DNA from: an uncultured Candidatus Saccharibacteria bacterium | GTDB lineage: Bacteria > Patescibacteriota > CALEFQ01 | Direction of reading: 5' to 3' | Assembly (NCBI GenBank): GCA_965230955.1 | Contig: OZ246404.1 | Location: 1,060,024-1,124,023 of the forward strand | Length of the DNA: 64,000 bases | Shown: piece after piece, positions 7,152 to 64,000 of the stretch | Layout: every line of letters starts with the position of its first letter | Position numbering within the stretch: position 1 is the stretch's first letter | The notes under the pieces: generated by a model | Database searches by the model: none | What the model was told of the DNA's origin: nothing | Seen by the model: the letters and a program-made list of their open reading frames with translations, nothing else | Program-made: the position numbers and the translations under genes

Positions 7152-8753
7152 TCACGCATACGGTACCGTGAACCAGAAAGTGCTCCCCCGCCCGACACCG
7201 TCACTCCGGACACCGACAGTTCCGCCATGCATCTCGATCAATTGTTTGACGACATAAAGCCCCAGACCGGAACCGGAAGTATAGGCTTTATAAACATCGT
7301 GCCCGCGAGAAAATTTCTTGAACAAACGAGGGATATCGGACGGATCAATACCGATCCCAGTGTCGACCACGCGAACTTCCAGCATTGCCGATTTCGGCTG
7401 TAAGGAGATTGTGACATTCCCGTGAGGCGTATATTTGACGGCATTATCAACCAGATTGTTCAGAACCTCATGGATGATTTTATCATCGACCTTGACCGGC
7501 CGGCTCGGGCGGCCCGGAGATTTAAAAACAAGACTGATTTGACGCGCCCGCGCTTCCGGACCGATCTCGCCCAGGACATCATTGATCACCGACTCCAATT
7601 GCAGCGGCCGTGGATGAAACTGAATATGACCGCTTTCAATCCGCGAGATATTCAACATATTGTTGACCAAAGCGATCAAACGCTCATTACTGTTATAAAC
7701 CCGGGTCAACACTTTTCCCACCGGATCGGAAACAGCCCCATAATCGCCATCCACCACCATCGAAAGATAACCCTTGATTGCGCTTAACGGCGTCCTTAAT
7801 TGATGCGAAGCGATGGAAATAAATTCCGATTTGGCTTGATCTAATTTGGTCAGTTTGGCATTGGCTTCTTCCAGTTTTTCCCGTAATTGTATTTCCCGGG
7901 AGACGCTCCGAATCAAGGAATATCCGAAAAACAGGAAAATCGCCAGGATGACAATTTTGATAATCTGCACCGGAAATTCATTCGGCAGAACAACAGCATC
8001 CAAGAACAAAAATACGGCAATAATAACCACCAACAAGGCAGTCAAAACTATGCGGATGCCAAACAAATTGCGCCTGACAATAGCATAGGCCGTAAATCCG
8101 AGAAGAAAGATGATTGAATAATTTCCGACCTGGTAGTACTGGATCTGGCCTTGAAACAACGGCAGAATGACGTTAAAAACGACATTAAAAGCGACCATAA
8201 TTGCCAAGCCGATCAAAAAATAGGAAAGCTTGGTTTTTTCCTGCGAAGGCAGAGTCAAATATTTCTTGATAAAATTTACCAGAAATAAAAGTGCCAGAAT
8301 AATCACCGACCCGTAAAACAAATTTCCCAGCGGGCCGAAGACCGGTCCCGTTCCCCAATCTTCAATATAAACACCGGCGATCAGAAGATCGGAAAATAGA
8401 GAAAGAGAAAACATTGAACACCCCAATATCACCGCCACCACATTAGCGACTCCCAGATATTTAGTCCGGGGAGATTCGATCGGAAAATAAACGGAAAAAA
8501 GATACATCCCGACTAATGAGGCCGAAATCGAAGCAAAGGAAAGCCGGATCAACCACAGGATAGTATTGGCATCCGTGAAAACGTCGGATAAATAAGCGAA
8601 TGATATCCAGCCAATAAACGCCAAAGTCAAAACCAGAAAAATTTTATTTACCAAAGACTTTTTGTTGGCAAAATATACCCAAAAACCCAGCACCAGACTC
8701 AGTAGGCTGATCAAAATCACAAACAAACGATTGATTAAATCAAGTGTTTCCAT
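7152..8753 (-). CDS. sensor histidine kinase with polytopic N-terminal membrane domain
   Basis: About 8 TM helices, then a HisKA H-box (ASHQLRTPL) and HATPase_c N, G1 and G2 boxes (NLVDNAVKYT, DTGIGI, GSGLGL). Confidence 0.85.
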   Translation of the reverse strand: METLDLINRLFVILISLLSLVLGFWVYFANKKSLVNKIFLVLTLAFIGWISFAYLSDVFTDANTILWLIRLSFASISASLVGMYLFSVYFPIESPRTKYLGVANVVAVILGCSMFSLSLFSDLLIAGVYIEDWGTGPVFGPLGNLFYGSVIILALLFLVNFIKKYLTLPSQEKTKLSYFLIGLAIMVAFNVVFNVILPLFQGQIQYYQVGNYSIIFLLGFTAYAIVRRNLFGIRIVLTALLVVIIAVFLFLDAVVLPNEFPVQIIKIVILAIFLFFGYSLIRSVSREIQLREKLEEANAKLTKLDQAKSEFISIASHQLRTPLSAIKGYLSMVVDGDYGAVSDPVGKVLTRVYNSNERLIALVNNMLNISRIESGHIQFHPRPLQLESVINDVLGEIGPEARARQISLVFKSPGRPSRPVKVDDKIIHEVLNNLVDNAVKYTPHGNVTISLQPKSAMLEVRVVDTGIGIDPSDIPRLFKKFSRGHDVYKAYTSGSGLGLYVVKQLIEMHGGTVGVRSDGVGRGSTFWFTVPYA

Positions 8754-38122: not shown

Positions 38123-38416
38123 TTATTTTTTGGGCGAGGTGAGCGGATCAAAACCGGAATCAATCTCTTGTTTATCATTGTAACCATCGCCATCGGTGTC
38201 TTTATTACGCGGATCGGTTCGATAAATATCTTTTTCCTGTTTATCGGTCAAGCCATCGCCGTCGCTATCAATCTTGTCATCAAGTAAACCGCCTGAAACC
38301 GGTGCCTTTTGGGTATCGCCGGACCAATAATAAGCGGCGGCAAAATAGGCGCTTGTGCCCAGGGCACATACACCCAAAACCGCTAAAATCAGAGCAATAA
38401 TCAAGAGGATTTTCAT
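38123..38416 (-). CDS. small secreted protein with thrombospondin-type-3-like Ca-binding repeats (DxDxDG)
   Basis: Signal or TM segment, then DSDGDGLTDKQEKD and DTDGDGYNDKQE repeats. It is inserted between dnaN and recF. Confidence 0.5.
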   Translation of the reverse strand: MKILLIIALILAVLGVCALGTSAYFAAAYYWSGDTQKAPVSGGLLDDKIDSDGDGLTDKQEKDIYRTDPRNKDTDGDGYNDKQEIDSGFDPLTSPKK

Positions 38417-39646: not shown

Positions 39647-39765
39647 TTTGGATAAGGTGAATAAGATTCGTGATTAAATTTTTACTTGGTGAGAGAGTGG
39701 AAAACCGTATGTTTTTTCCACAATTTTTTCCACCCTATTTTTTACTTATACTCCGTTTATCCACT
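39647..39765. other. candidate oriC: cluster of DnaA-box-like 9-mers in the dnaA-dnaN intergenic region
   Basis: TTTGGATAA (39647), AGTGGAAAA (39696), TTTTCCACA (39714), TTTTCCACC (39726) and TTATCCACT (39757). Each is 1-2 mismatches from TTATCCACA/TGTGGATAA. Flanking AT-rich sequence lies at 39525-39600. Confidence 0.45.
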
Positions 39766-41182
39766 AGGGGAGATAAAGACGTTGGCGAATTAAATCAACT
39801 TCCTGGCGTAATTGTTCATTAGCATCAACTTCATCCTTTATTTTTTCACAAGCATGCATCGCGGTAGTATGATCTCGCCCGCCCAGTTCCGTACCGATTG
39901 AAGGGAATGATGCATTTATTTCCTCGCGCATTAAAAACATCGCAATCTGACGCGGATTAACTATTTCTTTTTTTCGACTCACTCCCTGTAAATCAGCAGC
40001 AGTCAGATTATAGAAGGTGGTGACGGTATCGATTATCTGTTTAGGCGATAAGGCTTTTTTCTTGGGATTGGCGATGATATTAGCCAAAACGTTTTTAGTC
40101 ATCTCAATGTCCGGCAGGTGGTCATTCAGTTGTGCATGGGCGATTACTCGGTTCAGCGCCCCTTCCAGTTCCCTGATATTGTGCTGAATATTATTGGCAA
40201 TATAATCAATAATATCATCACCGACATTGAACTTTTTATCCCTAGCTTTAGCGGAAAGAATCGCTTTTCTTGTCTCAAACTCAGGTTGCCCGATATCGGC
40301 AATCATCCCGCCCTCAAACCGGGAACGCAGACGATCTTCGATCGTCGGTATGGCTTTGGGCGGTCGATCGGAAGTAAAGACAGTTTGTTTATTGGCGTTG
40401 TAGAGAGAATTGAAAATATGAAACAGTTCTTCCTGGGTTTTTTCTTTACCGGAAAGAAATTGAATGTCATCAATCACCAAGACATCGTATTCCATATACA
40501 TGTTTTTGAATTTCTCGATGGAATTGTTCTTGATGGCATTGACCAATCCGCTGGTGAATCTCTCGCTGGTGGTGAAAAGTATGGTTTTTTGCGGAGCGCT
40601 GATTCTGATATGGTTTCCGATGGCGTGGAGAAGGTGTGTCTTCCCCAAACCGACCCCGCCGTAGATAAAGAGCGGATTGTATTGTTTGCCGGGGTTTTTC
40701 GCGACTGATTGGCAAGCGGCGTGGGCGAGTTCATTTGATGATCCGACCACGAAATTTTCGAAGGTATAACGTGGATTCAGGTTGGTCTTGCTGTCAACTT
40801 CTTCAAAAACAGGGATGGGAACCTGATTTTCTTGGACGGCCCGAGCGATAGGCAGCGCGGTGGCCGCTTGATGAGGAACCGTACCTATTTGATACGCCAC
40901 ACGCCGTATTTTGTTATTGGTTACTCGTTGGAGAGCGGAGAAGATCTCTTTATTGAGTTTGTTTTCAAGCCATTCTTTGGCGAAACCATGCGGAACGCCG
41001 ATAATAAATTCCCCGTTGTCCGAGGAAATAATGCCGGTACCTTTAAACCAGGTATTGAATTTAGCCTTACTAATGACGAGTTCTAGCTCACCAAGAACTG
41101 TTTGCCAAATTTGGTTATTATCCATGCCGGCCCTTAGGTAAACGCCTGCCTTAACCGGCTCTGGAGCCGGTATCAGGGGCAA
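39764..41182 (-). CDS. dnaA: chromosomal replication initiator DnaA
   Basis: AAA+ Walker A GGVGLGKTHLLHAIGN, sensor motifs and C-terminal domain IV. Confidence 0.95.
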   Translation of the reverse strand: MPLIPAPEPVKAGVYLRAGMDNNQIWQTVLGELELVISKAKFNTWFKGTGIISSDNGEFIIGVPHGFAKEWLENKLNKEIFSALQRVTNNKIRRVAYQIGTVPHQAATALPIARAVQENQVPIPVFEEVDSKTNLNPRYTFENFVVGSSNELAHAACQSVAKNPGKQYNPLFIYGGVGLGKTHLLHAIGNHIRISAPQKTILFTTSERFTSGLVNAIKNNSIEKFKNMYMEYDVLVIDDIQFLSGKEKTQEELFHIFNSLYNANKQTVFTSDRPPKAIPTIEDRLRSRFEGGMIADIGQPEFETRKAILSAKARDKKFNVGDDIIDYIANNIQHNIRELEGALNRVIAHAQLNDHLPDIEMTKNVLANIIANPKKKALSPKQIIDTVTTFYNLTAADLQGVSRKKEIVNPRQIAMFLMREEINASFPSIGTELGGRDHTTAMHACEKIKDEVDANEQLRQEVDLIRQRLYLP

Positions 41183-43503: not shown

Positions 43504-44049
43504 ATGTCCAAGTGTCGCGCGTCTAATTTGGTCGGGAAGGTATTAAAAAATACCGATCCGAAAATTTCCGATGATAAATTGCTCCATTTATTAGTCAATG
43601 CTGATAATGGGGCTATTTTGGCTTTTATCGGCCGGAAGCAGATACTTGTGCCGGATAAAATTATACTCTCCCCCGCTCCGGTCAAGCTCCTGGGCCGATT
43701 ACCGGAGACAGAAAGTAAAGAATTTATCCATTTGGCGCTGAAAAATCGCCAGTTTGTGCTGAAAAGCCGGGTTGAAACCGAGAGCGGGCACTATTTGGGA
43801 CGAGTTTTCGATTTTGAATTTGATGATATTTCTTGGAAAATACAGCGTATTTTTATTTCTGATCGGATTTTGTTTCGAGCGCTGACCGAGCAGTTGCAAA
43901 TCCCCAAAGAAGATATTTTATTTATCGGCAAAGACAAAATAATCGTCCGGGACGGGCTAATCAAGCGCGAAAACATGGCTCGAGTGGCTCAGCCCAACTC
44001 GGAATATGTCGGCGCGGACAGCGGTGCCACTTTGAGTAGAAACCTCTGA
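43504..44049 (+). CDS. hypothetical protein with two internal repeats (possibly PRC-barrel-like)
   Basis: Two halves of about 80 aa each with similar patterning. The assignment is weak. Confidence 0.35.
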   Translation: MSKCRASNLVGKVLKNTDPKISDDKLLHLLVNADNGAILAFIGRKQILVPDKIILSPAPVKLLGRLPETESKEFIHLALKNRQFVLKSRVETESGHYLGRVFDFEFDDISWKIQRIFISDRILFRALTEQLQIPKEDILFIGKDKIIVRDGLIKRENMARVAQPNSEYVGADSGATLSRNL

Positions 44050-44105: not shown

Positions 44106-45074
44106 TTAAAGCGAAATCAGTTCCGCGCGGACCACAATTCGCTGGTGATTTGTCCCGACCGGATAGCAGGAAATTATACTTAGCGTCGGCCGATTGGTTT
44201 TGCGGAAAATATTCGGATCGGCCGGATCGTAATCGTTTTTCCGTGAAGTTATTCGATAGCGCAATTTAATCGAACCGCCGGTGATGACTATTTCATCACC
44301 ACGCTCGACTTTATCCAAATTGGCGCAGAGAGTATCGTAATCTCCGCGCGATCCAAAACGGCCGGAGCTGTGACAGAAAAATACCGCATCTCCGTCTTCG
44401 CCCGGGAAAGCCGTTTTATCGTAATGGACATAGCCTCCCTTGAGCCCTTCATAAATTTCCGGCTCGTCACGCGAAGTGACAAAGACCAAAGGAGCCGATG
44501 TCCCTATTTTTGAAATTTCCATGGCATAATTTTCCAAATCCGGATTGATTCTGATAATTGATCCGTCGAGCGGGTTTGAGCCGCTCATGATTTCTATCCC
44601 GTCATTTACTCCATCGCCGTCCGAATCAGGCAGAGAGGAATTTGTTCCATATCGATCACGTTCCCATTCGTCTTTAATCAGGTCGCGGTCGCTGTCCACC
44701 ACTCCTTGGTAAGTACTTCGAGGATCGTAGCCGTTTTCCAGCTCTTCTTTATCGCTAAAACTATCTCCGTCGGTATCGGTATTTTTCGGATTGGTTTGAA
44801 AGAAACTTGTTTCCAGGTAATCGGGCAGTCCGTCTTCATCGGTGTCAATTTTGGCCAGGGCGGTAGGCTTTTCGCCGTTTATCGTCGCGCCTTCGGCTGA
44901 TTCTTCGGTCGGCTCCGCGCTCATACTATTGGTGCTAAACCAATAACCGACTTCCGCCTTAATTTGGTCAAACATAATGATTGCCGGAGCGATCGCCAGC
45001 CCTAAAAATATCACAAAAGTGATCCAAAAAAGTTTTGATTTCCGTTTAGGTTGCGGGAAGATCACTTCAGCCAT
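44106..45074 (-). CDS. sortase-family transpeptidase with N-terminal TM anchor and TSP3-like Ca-binding repeats
   Basis: Candidate catalytic triad: His in VFFCHSSG, Cys in TLSIISCYP (a TLxTC variant) and Arg in QRIVVRAEL. Upstream are DTDEDGLPD, DTDGDSFSD and DSDGDGVNDG repeats. Confidence 0.55.
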   Translation of the reverse strand: MAEVIFPQPKRKSKLFWITFVIFLGLAIAPAIIMFDQIKAEVGYWFSTNSMSAEPTEESAEGATINGEKPTALAKIDTDEDGLPDYLETSFFQTNPKNTDTDGDSFSDKEELENGYDPRSTYQGVVDSDRDLIKDEWERDRYGTNSSLPDSDGDGVNDGIEIMSGSNPLDGSIIRINPDLENYAMEISKIGTSAPLVFVTSRDEPEIYEGLKGGYVHYDKTAFPGEDGDAVFFCHSSGRFGSRGDYDTLCANLDKVERGDEIVITGGSIKLRYRITSRKNDYDPADPNIFRKTNRPTLSIISCYPVGTNHQRIVVRAELISL

Positions 45075-45083
45075 AAGGATTTT

Positions 45084-46562
45084 TTATAAATACGCTTTCC
45101 GTCGGACAAAAACCAGGGTGATACCGGCGATTATTGTCAGAGCCATGAAAACAAAGAGATAAGTTAAGGAATTTCCGCCGGTCTTTACCATTGTTTGATC
45201 TTCCGGAGCCACACGATCGGCTGTTTCTTCCGGAGCGATAGTGGTGGTGGGTGTTATCGTCGCCGTGGTGGCGGCTGTTACCGTCACGGTTGGGGTCGGA
45301 GTGACTACCGGAGTGGCGGTGGGAGTCAAAACAGGAGTCGCTGTCGGAACCGGCGTTGTGGCAGGAGTAGGCGTGATAACCGGAGTATTGGCCGGTACCG
45401 GAGTGATGTTTGGTGTCAAAGCCGAAGCAATCGCCAGGGAGGAAGGGCTGTTATTATTACTTACTTTGCGTGAGCCATTCATAGCCAAGGTTGCGGTATT
45501 GGTGATGGTAGTTTGATCCGCAGTGTCGCTTTTAACGGTGACCTGAAAACGAATCAGCTGGGTTTGGCCGCTCTGTAAGGAAATATTGGCAATTTCCACA
45601 TTAGTTTCGCTGGAATTGTCCTTGGAACCGGTTGGGGTACTCAGTACTGTTAATCTTTCAGTGGCAGCCGGAATAGCATCCGAGACGGATAATCCATCCA
45701 GTTCGGATTCGGCGGAATTGTGCAGAGTTAAGGTATATGTTATCCGGTCGCCTTTTTGAAGCGAGGTCCCGCTGGCGGGATCGGAGGTCTCGGTAAAGGT
45801 AATATCATCCAGTGAGGCTAATTTAGGGGTGGTGGAAATGGTATCGGACGGCACGGTGGCGAGAGGAGAGGTTTTTTCGATTCCCACTGCCACTAAAACT
45901 TGATGATAGGTGTTTTTCACTTCAGTCGGAAAAACGAAGTATCCGACCAATCCGGCCGCGACTAAAGCAAATACAACAATCATTGTCGTCATTAGTGCCG
46001 GTGATAGCCGCCGGGAGCGAAAACTCTTCGGGGGTAAAATTGTTTTAGCGGTATCGGCCGCCGGAGTTGGTCTCGATTTCGGTGTTAAGGGAACTGATTT
46101 AGGTCGAATCGGCATCGGCTGGGGTCTTTGAAATTGAGACGCAGAAGTTGATCCTGAAGAAACCATCCGTTTTGGCGCCGTGGAGGGAGAAAAACGCTGG
46201 TATCGGTAAGGCGTGCCGGGAGTCACCGGTTTGGGCGGGATAGGCGGTGTCGGCCTGGCGGGAGCCTGGTTGTAGTCACCTGGCGTGGTTTTAGGCCGTA
46301 TTGGTGATGTAATTGGCACGGAGGGTTTCATTGTAGGGGTTCCGGTCTGTCTGAGGTCCTTATAGTTAACGTTTTTAACCGGCGGTGTCGGTGTTTGAAA
46401 AGGCTTATCTCCCCTGTCAAAAGGGCGCGGGGTATTCTGATTAGCCGAAAAACGCGATGGAACCATCGGTGGTTTTGCTGGCTTCTGAGCCGGAGATCCC
46501 GAGGACAAGGGACGAGAAGTCAGCGGTGCCCGAGGTTGGGAATTGTCAAAGAGGTTAGCCAT
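45084..46562 (-). CDS. surface protein with Pro-rich N-terminal region, TM or signal segment, beta-rich repeat domain, Thr/Pro/Val linker and C-terminal sorting-signal-like tail
   Basis: The C-terminus MVKTGGNSLTYLFVFMALTIIAGITLVFVRRKAYL is a sorting motif, hydrophobic span and basic tail (cell-wall sorting-signal architecture), with MVKTG in the LPXTG position. It lies directly downstream of the sortase gene. The 190-aa Pro-rich N-terminus may be real or the start may be the internal ATG at 45992. Confidence 0.5.
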   Translation of the reverse strand: MANLFDNSQPRAPLTSRPLSSGSPAQKPAKPPMVPSRFSANQNTPRPFDRGDKPFQTPTPPVKNVNYKDLRQTGTPTMKPSVPITSPIRPKTTPGDYNQAPARPTPPIPPKPVTPGTPYRYQRFSPSTAPKRMVSSGSTSASQFQRPQPMPIRPKSVPLTPKSRPTPAADTAKTILPPKSFRSRRLSPALMTTMIVVFALVAAGLVGYFVFPTEVKNTYHQVLVAVGIEKTSPLATVPSDTISTTPKLASLDDITFTETSDPASGTSLQKGDRITYTLTLHNSAESELDGLSVSDAIPAATERLTVLSTPTGSKDNSSETNVEIANISLQSGQTQLIRFQVTVKSDTADQTTITNTATLAMNGSRKVSNNNSPSSLAIASALTPNITPVPANTPVITPTPATTPVPTATPVLTPTATPVVTPTPTVTVTAATTATITPTTTIAPEETADRVAPEDQTMVKTGGNSLTYLFVFMALTIIAGITLVFVRRKAYL

Positions 46563-46729
46563 AAAAGATATTTACGAGTGTCCAGAGGGCTGTTTTGGCT
46601 TTTTATAAGCCAAAACTTAGCTTATCTTCCGAAACACTCTATTTAAGCATAAAAATACCAATAGGTCAATAAAATGGATTGTATTTTAGTCTTATTACCT
46701 TTAATTACCATTGTTTTTGGTAAATCTGA

Positions 46730-46757
46730 GGTAAAAAATAAGGGAGAACCCATTGGT
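46730..46757. repeat. second copy of the AAGGGAGAACCCATTGGTTCACCCT hairpin element
   Basis: See the copy at 19242. Confidence 0.6.
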
Positions 46758-47020
46758 TCACCCTTACTTATTTTTTACTTTGTAATCTAATTATAGCAGG
46801 AAAATTAAAGTCTGTCAAAGGGAAAAGGTGGAAAAAAGGATATTGGAGTAAAGAGTCTTTCGTAAAACTCTTTATAACAATATCCTCTCGTCAGAGTTGA
46901 TTTAGGCTTGTCCTGATTCGTCCGGTATTCTTTTCTGTGGTTTAATTTGACCGGTGCAATAAGATTGAGCCAATGGGTAATCACTGGGAGTTGGCGGTTT
47001 CCCTTTTTTTCTTATGATAG

Positions 47021-47146
47021 TTATTTCGCAATTTCACATTCGAATGGGGCAGAGTCAAACTTGGGTGGTCCAAATATTATTTGAACCTCTTTGCCGGCGA
47101 GAAAATCTGACAATAGTTCTCCCGGTACCTGAAAGAAGATTTTCAT
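47021..47146 (-). CDS. small ORF (41 aa, MKIFFQVPGELLSDFLAGKEVQIIFGPPKFDSAPFECEIAK) with a strong RBS
   Basis: GGAGGAAAAATG. Upstream, on the same strand, are TTGACA-16-TAAGGT and a perfect palindrome GTCACAATCTTGTGAC between promoter and RBS. Confidence 0.35.
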   Translation of the reverse strand: MKIFFQVPGELLSDFLAGKEVQIIFGPPKFDSAPFECEIAK

Positions 47147-63754: not shown

Positions 63755-64000
63755 CTATTTCGTTTTCATCCGGACAGACGACGGAACTGCGGGATCGGCT
63801 CCGATACTGGTTTCCACCACGTCGCACCAGCCGTCATCATCAGTATCCGATAACTCGAATATGTTCACATCGAGCCAGTTTCTGACGATGGCCCGACCGA
63901 ATTTTCCTCGGTCGAGTTCCACCTTGTCGGTGGCAGTGGTCGTGGTCGACTGGGCGGCCATCATATCGAGTGCCGATGAAGTGATGGCGGGGATGATGAC
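63755..64000 (-). CDS. partial CDS (3' part; reading frame open to the window edge) with a TSP3-like DTDDDG motif
   Basis: The ORF continues past 64000. The C-terminal region contains SDTDDDGWCD. Confidence 0.35.
   Translation of the reverse strand, partial: VIIPAITSSALDMMAAQSTTTTATDKVELDRGKFGRAIVRNWLDVNIFELSDTDDDGWCDVVETSIGADPAVPSSVRMKTK

Follow-up and report, generated by a model that had tools for sequence, protein, structure and literature searches.

A likely dedicated sortase–substrate pair with a proline-less sorting signal in a Candidatus Saccharibacteria genome

What does a sortase recognize when the surface protein encoded next to it ends in a typical sorting tail that lacks both the leucine and the proline of the LPXTG motif? 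This question is raised by two adjacent genes of an uncultured Candidatus Saccharibacteria bacterium (assembly GCA_965230955.1), which lie in a 64-kb stretch of its approximately 1.14-Mb genome (contig OZ246404.1, positions 1,060,024 to 1,124,023), hereafter called the window. One gene encodes a sortase and the other a surface protein, referred to below as the substrate. A first-pass annotation of the window had described the two as a dedicated pair using a non-canonical motif, MVKTG. The analysis presented here, computational throughout, suggests that the locus likely encodes a surface protein together with its cognate dedicated sortase, the two being matched through a lineage-specific signal devoid of proline; the mechanism and the origin of the signal proposed below share this degree of confidence. 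The host belongs to Patescibacteria (the candidate phyla radiation, CPR), and the homologues of both proteins come from Patescibacteria or ‘Candidatus Saccharibacteria’. Sortases are reported to be common in CPR bacteria, more than half of the genomes having one (PMC6744442), and a literature search found no account of the sorting signals of CPR sortases.

The locus comprises two genes and a terminator:

45084..46562, minus strand: substrate gene, 492 aa, CLIPPER/DUF11 surface protein with a C-terminal sorting signal
44106..45074, minus strand: sortase gene, 322 aa, starting 9 nt past the substrate stop codon
44065..44095, minus strand: intrinsic terminator past the sortase gene (14-bp stem with 8 G-C pairs, T-runs flanking it in both orientations)

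In transcription the substrate gene comes first and the sortase gene second, the reverse of the order given in the first-pass annotation, which had the sortase upstream. Since the gap between them is 9 nt and a strong terminator follows the sortase gene, the two genes form a two-gene operon.

The identity of the enzyme has been established from its profile match, its catalytic residues, and its modelled fold. The features of the protein are as follows:

44112..44522, minus strand: sortase catalytic domain, aa 185-321 (PF04203, triad, Foldseek)
44370-44372, minus strand: His235
44166-44168, minus strand: Cys303
44139-44141, minus strand: Arg312
44586..44852, minus strand: four TSP3-type DxDxD repeats, aa 75-163, between the anchor and the catalytic domain
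44967..45035, minus strand: predicted N-terminal membrane anchor, aa about 14-36, preceded by PKRKSK

The Pfam profile Sortase PF04203 (peptidase C60) matches aa 185-319 over its full length with 59.2 bits against a cutoff of 26.6, and the three motifs read by the first-pass annotation as sortase-like are indeed in place (VFFCHSSG, aa 231-238; TLSIISCYP, aa 297-305; QRIVVRAEL, aa 311-319). The His235, Cys303, and Arg312 residues that they contain are invariant in an alignment of 18 homologous sequences reaching down to 27% identity. In the AlphaFold2 model (mean predicted local distance difference test score, pLDDT, of 76), the catalytic domain, an eight-stranded β-barrel as in other sortases, mostly scores 80-90. 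A Foldseek search of the PDB with this model gave 138 matches at E ≤ 0.001, the top 50 of them all sortases; Clostridium perfringens SrtD (4D70) is the best at E 1.4e-11, followed by class C and class E enzymes (E 1e-11 to 1e-9).

The single transmembrane-like segment, noticed also in the first reading of the sequence, spans aa 13-40 by hydropathy and aa 15-44 as a model helix, and would give the protein a type II topology. Between this segment and the catalytic domain lie the TSP3 repeats. Three DxDxDG repeats had been counted initially, and Pfam TSP3_bac likewise reports three stretches (37.9 bits); by eye the count is four (DxDxD at aa 77, 100, 127, and 150), and two of these units are strictly DxDxDG. 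Their Asp positions are invariant in the clade, and the region is modelled at pLDDT 83-92. No paper linking sortases with TSP3 repeats was found in a literature search.

Assignment to one of the classes A-F, proposed in the first-pass annotation, failed with hidden Markov models (HMMs): none of the NCBIfam class A-F models, nor the Gram-negative ‘marine’ one, reaches its cutoff. The window sortase scores 39.6 and 38.7 bits with the two class D models (cutoffs 140 and 165), 33.3 with class C (160), 27.6 with class E (160), 20.7 with class F (166), and 13.9 with the marine model (158); the class A and class B models give no match at E ≤ 1. The general sortase model TIGR01076 also stays short of its cutoff (31.8 against 39.35). 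Judged by its sequence, therefore, the enzyme is a genuine sortase with predicted transpeptidase activity, unplaceable in any class by the class HMMs.

Two further cysteines of the catalytic domain, Cys234 (44373-44375), which directly precedes His235 in FFCHSS, and Cys250 (44325-44327), in TLCANL, are invariant in the clade and absent from outgroup sortases. They may form a disulfide beside the active site.

The C-terminus of the substrate shows the tripartite layout of a sorting signal, as the first-pass annotation had noted:

45192..45236, minus strand: conserved acidic segment APEETADRVAPEDQT, aa 443-457, just upstream of the motif
45174..45191, minus strand: sorting motif M-V-K-T-G-G, aa 458-463, predicted scissile bond T461/G462
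45087..45173, minus strand: C-terminal hydrophobic helix, aa 464-486, and basic RRKAYL, aa 487-492

The hydrophobic segment extends over aa 463-488 in a hydropathy window and over aa 464-491 as a helix of the model. The peptide spanning the predicted T/G scissile bond is PEDQTMVKTGGNSL, and another, APEDQTMVKTGGNSL, includes the acidic PED segment together with the motif (M458, V459, T461, G462). The order of motif, helix, and basic tail is kept in all orthologues, and the tail alignment shows no variation at residues P, E, E, D, and E of the acidic segment.

The motif was compared in 18 tails, with positions numbered as in the LPXTG pentapeptide. Position 1 is T in eight tails, D in four, S and E in two each, and K and M in one each; position 2 is V in 15 and L in three; position 3 is divided equally between K and E (nine each). 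Positions 4 and 5 are T and G in every tail, and the residue after the motif is G in 17 and S in one. None of the 18 tails thus has Leu in the first position or Pro in the second. Because position 1 varies and M occurs there in the window only, the signal is better written as x-[VL]-[KE]-T-G-(G) than as MVKTG: the first-pass annotation was right that the motif is non-canonical, Leu-Pro being lost and Thr-Gly kept throughout, and its methionine turns out not to be conserved. Among the variant signals described for known sortases are LAXTG, (N/S/P)PXTG, and LPXTA (PMC8225981).

When the tails are searched in isolation, the anchor models match them to differing degrees. The window tail passes the LPXTG-anchor model TIGR01167 (18.9 bits, cutoff 15.9), and 10/10 isolated tails match this model at E ≤ 10, the best at E 0.0018. 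The alignment of the window tail begins at model position 4, and therefore the L-P positions contribute nothing to the match. Pfam Gram_pos_anchor PF00746 gives the isolated window tail 16.9 bits (cutoff 20). The Microco_LAVTG model matches five of the ten tails, all below cutoff (18.9 bits against 27), and strep_LAETG matches one of the ten at E 0.75 and is not passed.

The substrate is the only open reading frame (ORF) longer than 100 aa in the window that ends in a hydrophobic helix, a basic end, and an xxTG motif. Because of this uniqueness and of its conservation in orthologues, the tail cannot be regarded as a chance pattern. An exhaustive HMMER search with a profile of the last 52 residues in 1.84 billion representative proteins returned six matches, all of them orthologues of the substrate, and no second sortase was found within the window. 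With the extended tail confined to orthologues, and no other such tail or second sortase in the window, a system of one enzyme and one substrate fits the data. The first-pass annotation had listed a lack of further proteins with the C-terminal motif as a refutation; a tail restricted to orthologues agrees instead with a dedicated pair.

The pairing of the two genes is conserved. Orthologues of the sortase (50-85% identity) are rare, forming about 15 clusters among 5.8 billion proteins. A scan of the genome collection with the closer sortase alignment A3 gave four loci. In the metagenome scan, 77 of 80 loci were rejected as orthologues, since they shared the TSP3 repeat pattern only and encode unrelated proteins; the other three (L009-L011) are orthologues. 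In every locus with a readable flank (L001-L004, L009-L011, L089, L094, L095, and L096, counted as nine orthologous loci besides the window), the gene for the substrate lies immediately ahead of that for the sortase, and no orthologue without an adjacent sortase was found among them, which removes one circumstance that the first-pass annotation had named as fatal to its idea. Together with the exclusive occurrence of the tail in orthologues, this adjacency bears out the proposed dedicated pair, with cleavage as its predicted consequence.

Sister TSP3-sortases, used here as an outgroup (P0016, P0018, and P0019; about 31% identity), also consist of an anchor, TSP3 repeats, and a sortase domain. 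Each of the three has one substrate gene directly upstream, the product of which carries a tail with LPKTG, APKTG, or TPATG followed by a transmembrane helix and a basic end; the passenger domains are unrelated, and the signal peptides are ordinary. Since the sister enzymes keep the arrangement with unrelated passengers and PxTG tails, gene adjacency appears to track the enzyme–substrate relation. As judged from these tails, position 1 is relaxed across the wider TSP3-sortase group, and what is specifically new in the window clade is that Val or Leu stands in place of Pro.

The remaining part of the substrate is also unusual. Four segments precede the acidic stretch:

46011..46562, minus strand: N-terminal region, aa 1-184, basic, Pro-rich, predicted disordered
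45918..46010, minus strand: first hydrophobic segment by hydropathy, aa 185-215, preceded by KSFRSRR
45429..45815, minus strand: single Ig-like CLIPPER (DUF11)/DUF7927 domain, aa about 250-378
45237..45428, minus strand: Pro/Thr-rich disordered linker, aa 379-442

The Pro-rich region of about 190 aa ahead of the first hydrophobic segment, remarked upon in the first-pass annotation, is confirmed: it contains 22% Pro, has 30 K+R against 6 D+E and an isoelectric point of 11.8, and its aa 1-175 are modelled at pLDDT <50. A mis-called start was considered as its origin and rejected, because the frames of orthologues are open from a conserved MANLFDN start. Versions of 301 aa annotated among the orthologues are truncations by the gene caller, the L089 frame, for example, being open and beginning with MANLFDN. 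The open frame, together with conserved islands (MANLFDNSQ, VPSRFS, FDRGDKPF, KRMVxSG, and KTILPPKSFRS) that persist at 40-60% identity, identifies the region as real coding sequence. The nonsynonymous rate (dN) in it is well below the synonymous rate (dS), with dN/dS of about 0.09-0.17, a rough value since dS is saturated. The region, aa 1-184, is probably cytoplasmic. For the first hydrophobic segment the model gives a helix over aa 188-225, in which G204, Y208, and F209 are invariant; judged by its sequence, the segment may serve as a signal-anchor or belong to a very long signal peptide as its h-region, and no convincing signal-peptidase site was seen near it by eye.

The CLIPPER domain passes the cutoffs of both Pfam families (DUF7927, 50.3 bits, cutoff 31; DUF11, 37.3 bits, cutoff 24.6) and is modelled at pLDDT >90. 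Its fold is CnaA-like: the best Foldseek match is 9IFR, a CLIPPER structure (E 4.9e-07), with the pilins EbpB and BcpA next; a sequence search of the PDB with the substrate matched low-complexity Pro/Thr linkers only. Glu258 (45789-45791) is invariant in the domain, as is N355. In a manual alignment to the DUF11 consensus, Glu258 appears to occupy the position of the isopeptide-forming Lys, and an intramolecular Lys-Asn isopeptide bond thus seems unlikely. Lys366 is invariant too; the conserved GSRK(V/I)SNNN(S/T)PS block that contains it closes the domain. The linker that follows is rich in Thr and Pro (34% and 21% of aa 376-445), with pLDDT <50 for aa 400-462; its composition suggests a wall-spanning stalk. 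In some orthologues (L094 298-2022, L096 1-1329, and L002 356-2284), the CLIPPER domain and the linker are separated by an extra domain of about 130-200 aa. Hence, the passenger part is modular, and the N-terminal islands and the tail are fixed.

If the enzyme does not depend on Leu-Pro, which residues might it read? In characterized sortases, the β6/β7 region contacts signal positions 1 and 2. In the clade, the net charge of this region is 0 to +4 in 10 of the 11 members, eight of them at +2 or above; in the outgroup it is -1 to -5. The segment upstream of the motif behaves in the opposite way, with a net charge of -3 to -7 in all clade orthologues versus 0 to +6 in the outgroup. These opposite charges suggest, at the level of sequence, an extended charge-complementary recognition surface. 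Another residue to consider is Tyr218, which all clade members share and which falls opposite the Phe of ‘GHF’ when aligned with C. perfringens SrtD; this Phe site has been equated with a tyrosine of class E enzymes that is proposed to favour residues other than proline (PMC5148588).

The following mechanism is proposed. The substrate would insert through its internal hydrophobic segment, leaving the basic Pro-rich N-terminal region in the cytoplasm and the CLIPPER domain with the Pro/Thr stalk outside, while the C-terminal helix and the RRK tail would retain the protein in the membrane. In the type II sortase, four calcium-type TSP3 repeats would act as a stalk that keeps the catalytic domain at a distance from the membrane, and Cys303 would attack the bond between T461 and G462 in the x-V-K-T-G-G signal. 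Transfer of the substrate to an amine acceptor would follow, with a peptidoglycan precursor as the most probable one. Should the first helix be retained, both ends of the mature protein would be fixed, which is an unusual feature. The signal itself was probably derived from the (L/A/T)-P-x-T-G of the sister TSP3-sortases by a change of Pro to Val or Leu, with position 1 becoming uninformative, and the conserved acidic stretch upstream may add specificity.

Several points weigh against this scheme. A cytoplasmic region of 184 aa and an apparently uncleaved first helix are atypical for sortase substrates, and neither TIGR01167 nor Pfam Gram_pos_anchor is reported in scans of the full-length substrate. 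Beyond the window, the genome may encode another sortase or canonical LPXTG proteins. No class A-F model reaches its cutoff with the enzyme, TIGR01076 falling short as well, so that its specificity cannot be borrowed from a characterized class. The charge complementarity amounts to one clade set against three outgroup pairs, and even in the clade the P0015 loop has a net charge of -2 while the P0015 substrate is still acidic. Finally, of five outgroup sortases with Pro-bearing neighbours, four have Tyr218 as well. For this reason, the tyrosine was rejected as a sufficient cause of proline loss; on sequence grounds, it may permit a change from proline without explaining it.

A more far-reaching version of the scheme can be offered tentatively, as a conjecture with rather poor odds. 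The enzyme would read V/L-K/E-T-G and the acidic segment (APEE..D..PED) through its basic β6/β7 loop instead of Leu-Pro, and the substrate, with its cytoplasmic domain and first helix retained and its C-terminus fixed to the wall, would form a covalent tether running from the wall through the membrane to the cytoplasm.

Of the other explanations, the one that survives best, unlikely as it is, is ligation of the pilus type by a class C-like enzyme, in which the substrate Thr would be joined to a Lys of another copy or of another surface protein, giving a fibre or an attachment of the basal-pilin kind. Class C sortases are indeed among the best sequence and fold matches of the enzyme, the next structural matches of the CLIPPER domain after 9IFR are Gram-positive pilins (EbpB, a basal pilin, and BcpA), and the substrate has a weak NCBIfam match to an isopeptide-forming fimbrial domain (E 0.02). 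Lys366 in the GSRK(V/I)SNNN block of the substrate is invariant, and a dedicated two-gene operon resembles pilus islands. Yet each locus contains a single pilin-like gene, with no tip or base pilin partners bearing sorting tails within 10 kb, and no YPKN-type pilin motif was seen in the substrate sequence. The class C model gives 33 bits against a cutoff of 160, and the long cytoplasmic region with a first helix devoid of an obvious signal-peptidase site would block release into a fibre.

It is also quite improbable that the C-terminal helix is a mere membrane anchor of a two-pass protein, with T-G-G as a helix cap or hinge and with the sortase serving canonical substrates elsewhere. A motif without Leu and Pro, the silence of full-length scans about an LPXTG-anchor domain, and data confined to 64 kb of the genome would all agree with such a view. 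It is opposed by the adjacency of the two genes, strictly kept down to 50-55% identity, by the sister sortases adjoining genes with unrelated passengers and clear PxTG tails, and by the invariant T-G, spaced canonically from the helix and the basic end, in a tail that passes TIGR01167 when isolated.

That the enzyme is mainly a hydrolase, clipping off the C-terminal anchor with water as the acceptor and leaving the ectodomain held by the N-terminal helix or shed, hardly deserves credence: sortases such as the class A enzymes do hydrolyse substrates in vitro when no amine nucleophile is supplied, and a second, covalent anchor would be needless if the N-terminal one stays uncleaved, as it appears to, but no characterized sortase is known to be mainly a hydrolase in vivo, genes for peptidoglycan and wall polymers surround the locus, so that amine acceptors should exist, and the long Pro/Thr stalk is typical of wall-spanning segments.

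The preferred reading, a dedicated enzyme with its own proline-less signal, may be set against known systems. Class E sortases (Streptomyces coelicolor SrtE1 and Corynebacterium glutamicum SrtE, with the LAXTG signal) share with it an x-T-G signal without Pro at position 2 and the tyrosine of the β3/β4 loop (Tyr218 here), and class E structures are among the fold matches. They differ in that the class E model gives 27.6 bits against a cutoff of 160, position 2 is here Val, which is β-branched, or Leu rather than Ala, and position 1 is unconserved rather than Leu; moreover, class E enzymes are housekeeping sortases with many substrates and no TSP3 stalk, whereas the window enzyme apparently has a single substrate.

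Class D (C. perfringens SrtD, 4D70, and Bacillus anthracis SrtC, with LPNTA) scores highest among the class HMMs (39.6 and 38.7 bits) and supplies the top Foldseek match (4D70, E 1.4e-11, TM-score 0.68 on the target), and its members also have few dedicated substrates. These scores lie far under the cutoffs of 140-165, and class D signals keep L-P and vary the last position (LPXTA), while the window signal loses L-P and keeps T-G.

The class B systems of IsdC (NPQTN) and Clostridioides difficile SrtB, which recognizes (S/P)PXTG, likewise have a dedicated enzyme encoded beside its substrate. Class B signals depart from Leu at position 1 (PMC8225981), as does the window signal. Unlike it, they retain Pro at position 2, and the enzyme has no class B model match at E ≤ 1.

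Closest in architecture and gene order are the sister TSP3-sortases, which differ from the window pair in their Pro-containing tails, the ordinary signal peptides and unrelated passengers of their substrates, an acidic β6/β7 region, and the lack of Cys234 and Cys250. On the substrate side, the ectodomain, passing the DUF11 and DUF7927 cutoffs and matching 9IFR best in structure, resembles the CLIPPER (DUF11) fibrillar adhesins. The CLIPPER family has been described as surface proteins with a sorting domain (PMC12617251), which holds for the window substrate as well; the difference is a single domain copy here in place of tandem stalk repeats.

Upstream of the substrate gene, the operon has a candidate promoter and a structured leader:

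46790..46818, minus strand: candidate operon promoter, TTGACA-17 nt-TATAAT with an upstream TG
46563..46789, minus strand: structured leader of about 220 nt
about 46733-46765, minus strand: leader hairpin AAGGGTGAACCAATGGGTTCTCCCTT followed by a T-run, directly past the promoter

The promoter is a candidate by its 12/12 match to the consensus only, and promoter-like sites are not enriched in the region (five found versus 4.8 expected). Its -10 box and the downstream leader are conserved in two orthologous loci, L001 (about 8300-8615) and L089 (1-360), to which the leader shows 72-76% nucleotide identity; the hairpin is identical in L001 and nearly so in L089. The minimum free energy of the leader is -62.1 kcal/mol, compared with -37.5 +/- 4.2 for shuffled sequences (z = -5.8). 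No Rfam family matches it at or above the gathering score. The hairpin could be an attenuator of the substrate–sortase operon or a small RNA of about 50 nt. Further upstream of the promoter, the intergenic region contains a 36-aa ORF, MKIFFQVPGELLSDFLAGKEVQIIFGPPKFDSAPFECEIAK (window 47036-47146, minus strand), behind a strong ribosome-binding site (AGGAGG); the ORF is annotated as a gene on a Logan contig (L005), and Pfam gives no match for it.

The region around the replication origin of this small genome falls within the window. On one flank of the locus lie dnaA, rpmH, rnpA, yidD, yidC, and a Jag/R3H gene:

39764-41182, minus strand: dnaA

On the other flank are genes for a polysaccharide flippase and a glycosyltransferase; an LCP family protein is also encoded nearby and, with these two, makes the context a wall-related one. 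The operon adjoins the replication origin in both loci with enough flank visible, the window and L095, and in the latter the whole oriC-proximal neighbourhood is as in the window, although the sortase identity is 55%.

An ORF of 181 aa without any Pfam match (window 43504-44049, plus strand) runs towards the sortase terminator from the opposite side; genes of similar size occupy the same place in L095 (173 aa) and L096 (191 aa). Between dnaN and recF lies a gene for a 97-aa protein (window 38123-38416, minus strand) with an N-terminal membrane helix and TSP3 calcium-type repeats, an arrangement kept in the 55%-identity relative (L095 16518-16808), and a further TSP3-like C-terminus is encoded at window 63755-64000. 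TSP3 repeats thus seem to be a recurrent envelope module in the host lineage.

Variant sortase motifs are already a well-populated category, and the family described here is small. What is new is that a small and rare clade has a cognate signal without Leu and Pro in which Thr-Gly is kept. Together with the PxTG-using sister enzymes, this clade offers natural enzyme–signal pairs for dissecting specificity at positions 1 and 2, and a relaxed or orthogonal recognition of x-V-K/E-T-G could serve protein ligation beside the LPXTG- and LAXTG-specific sortases. For CPR bacteria, the finding is a warning that searches based on LPXTG under-count their surface proteins. The long cytoplasmic Pro-rich region of the substrate could, in addition, point to a linkage between the wall and the cytoplasm in organisms whose envelope is poorly understood.

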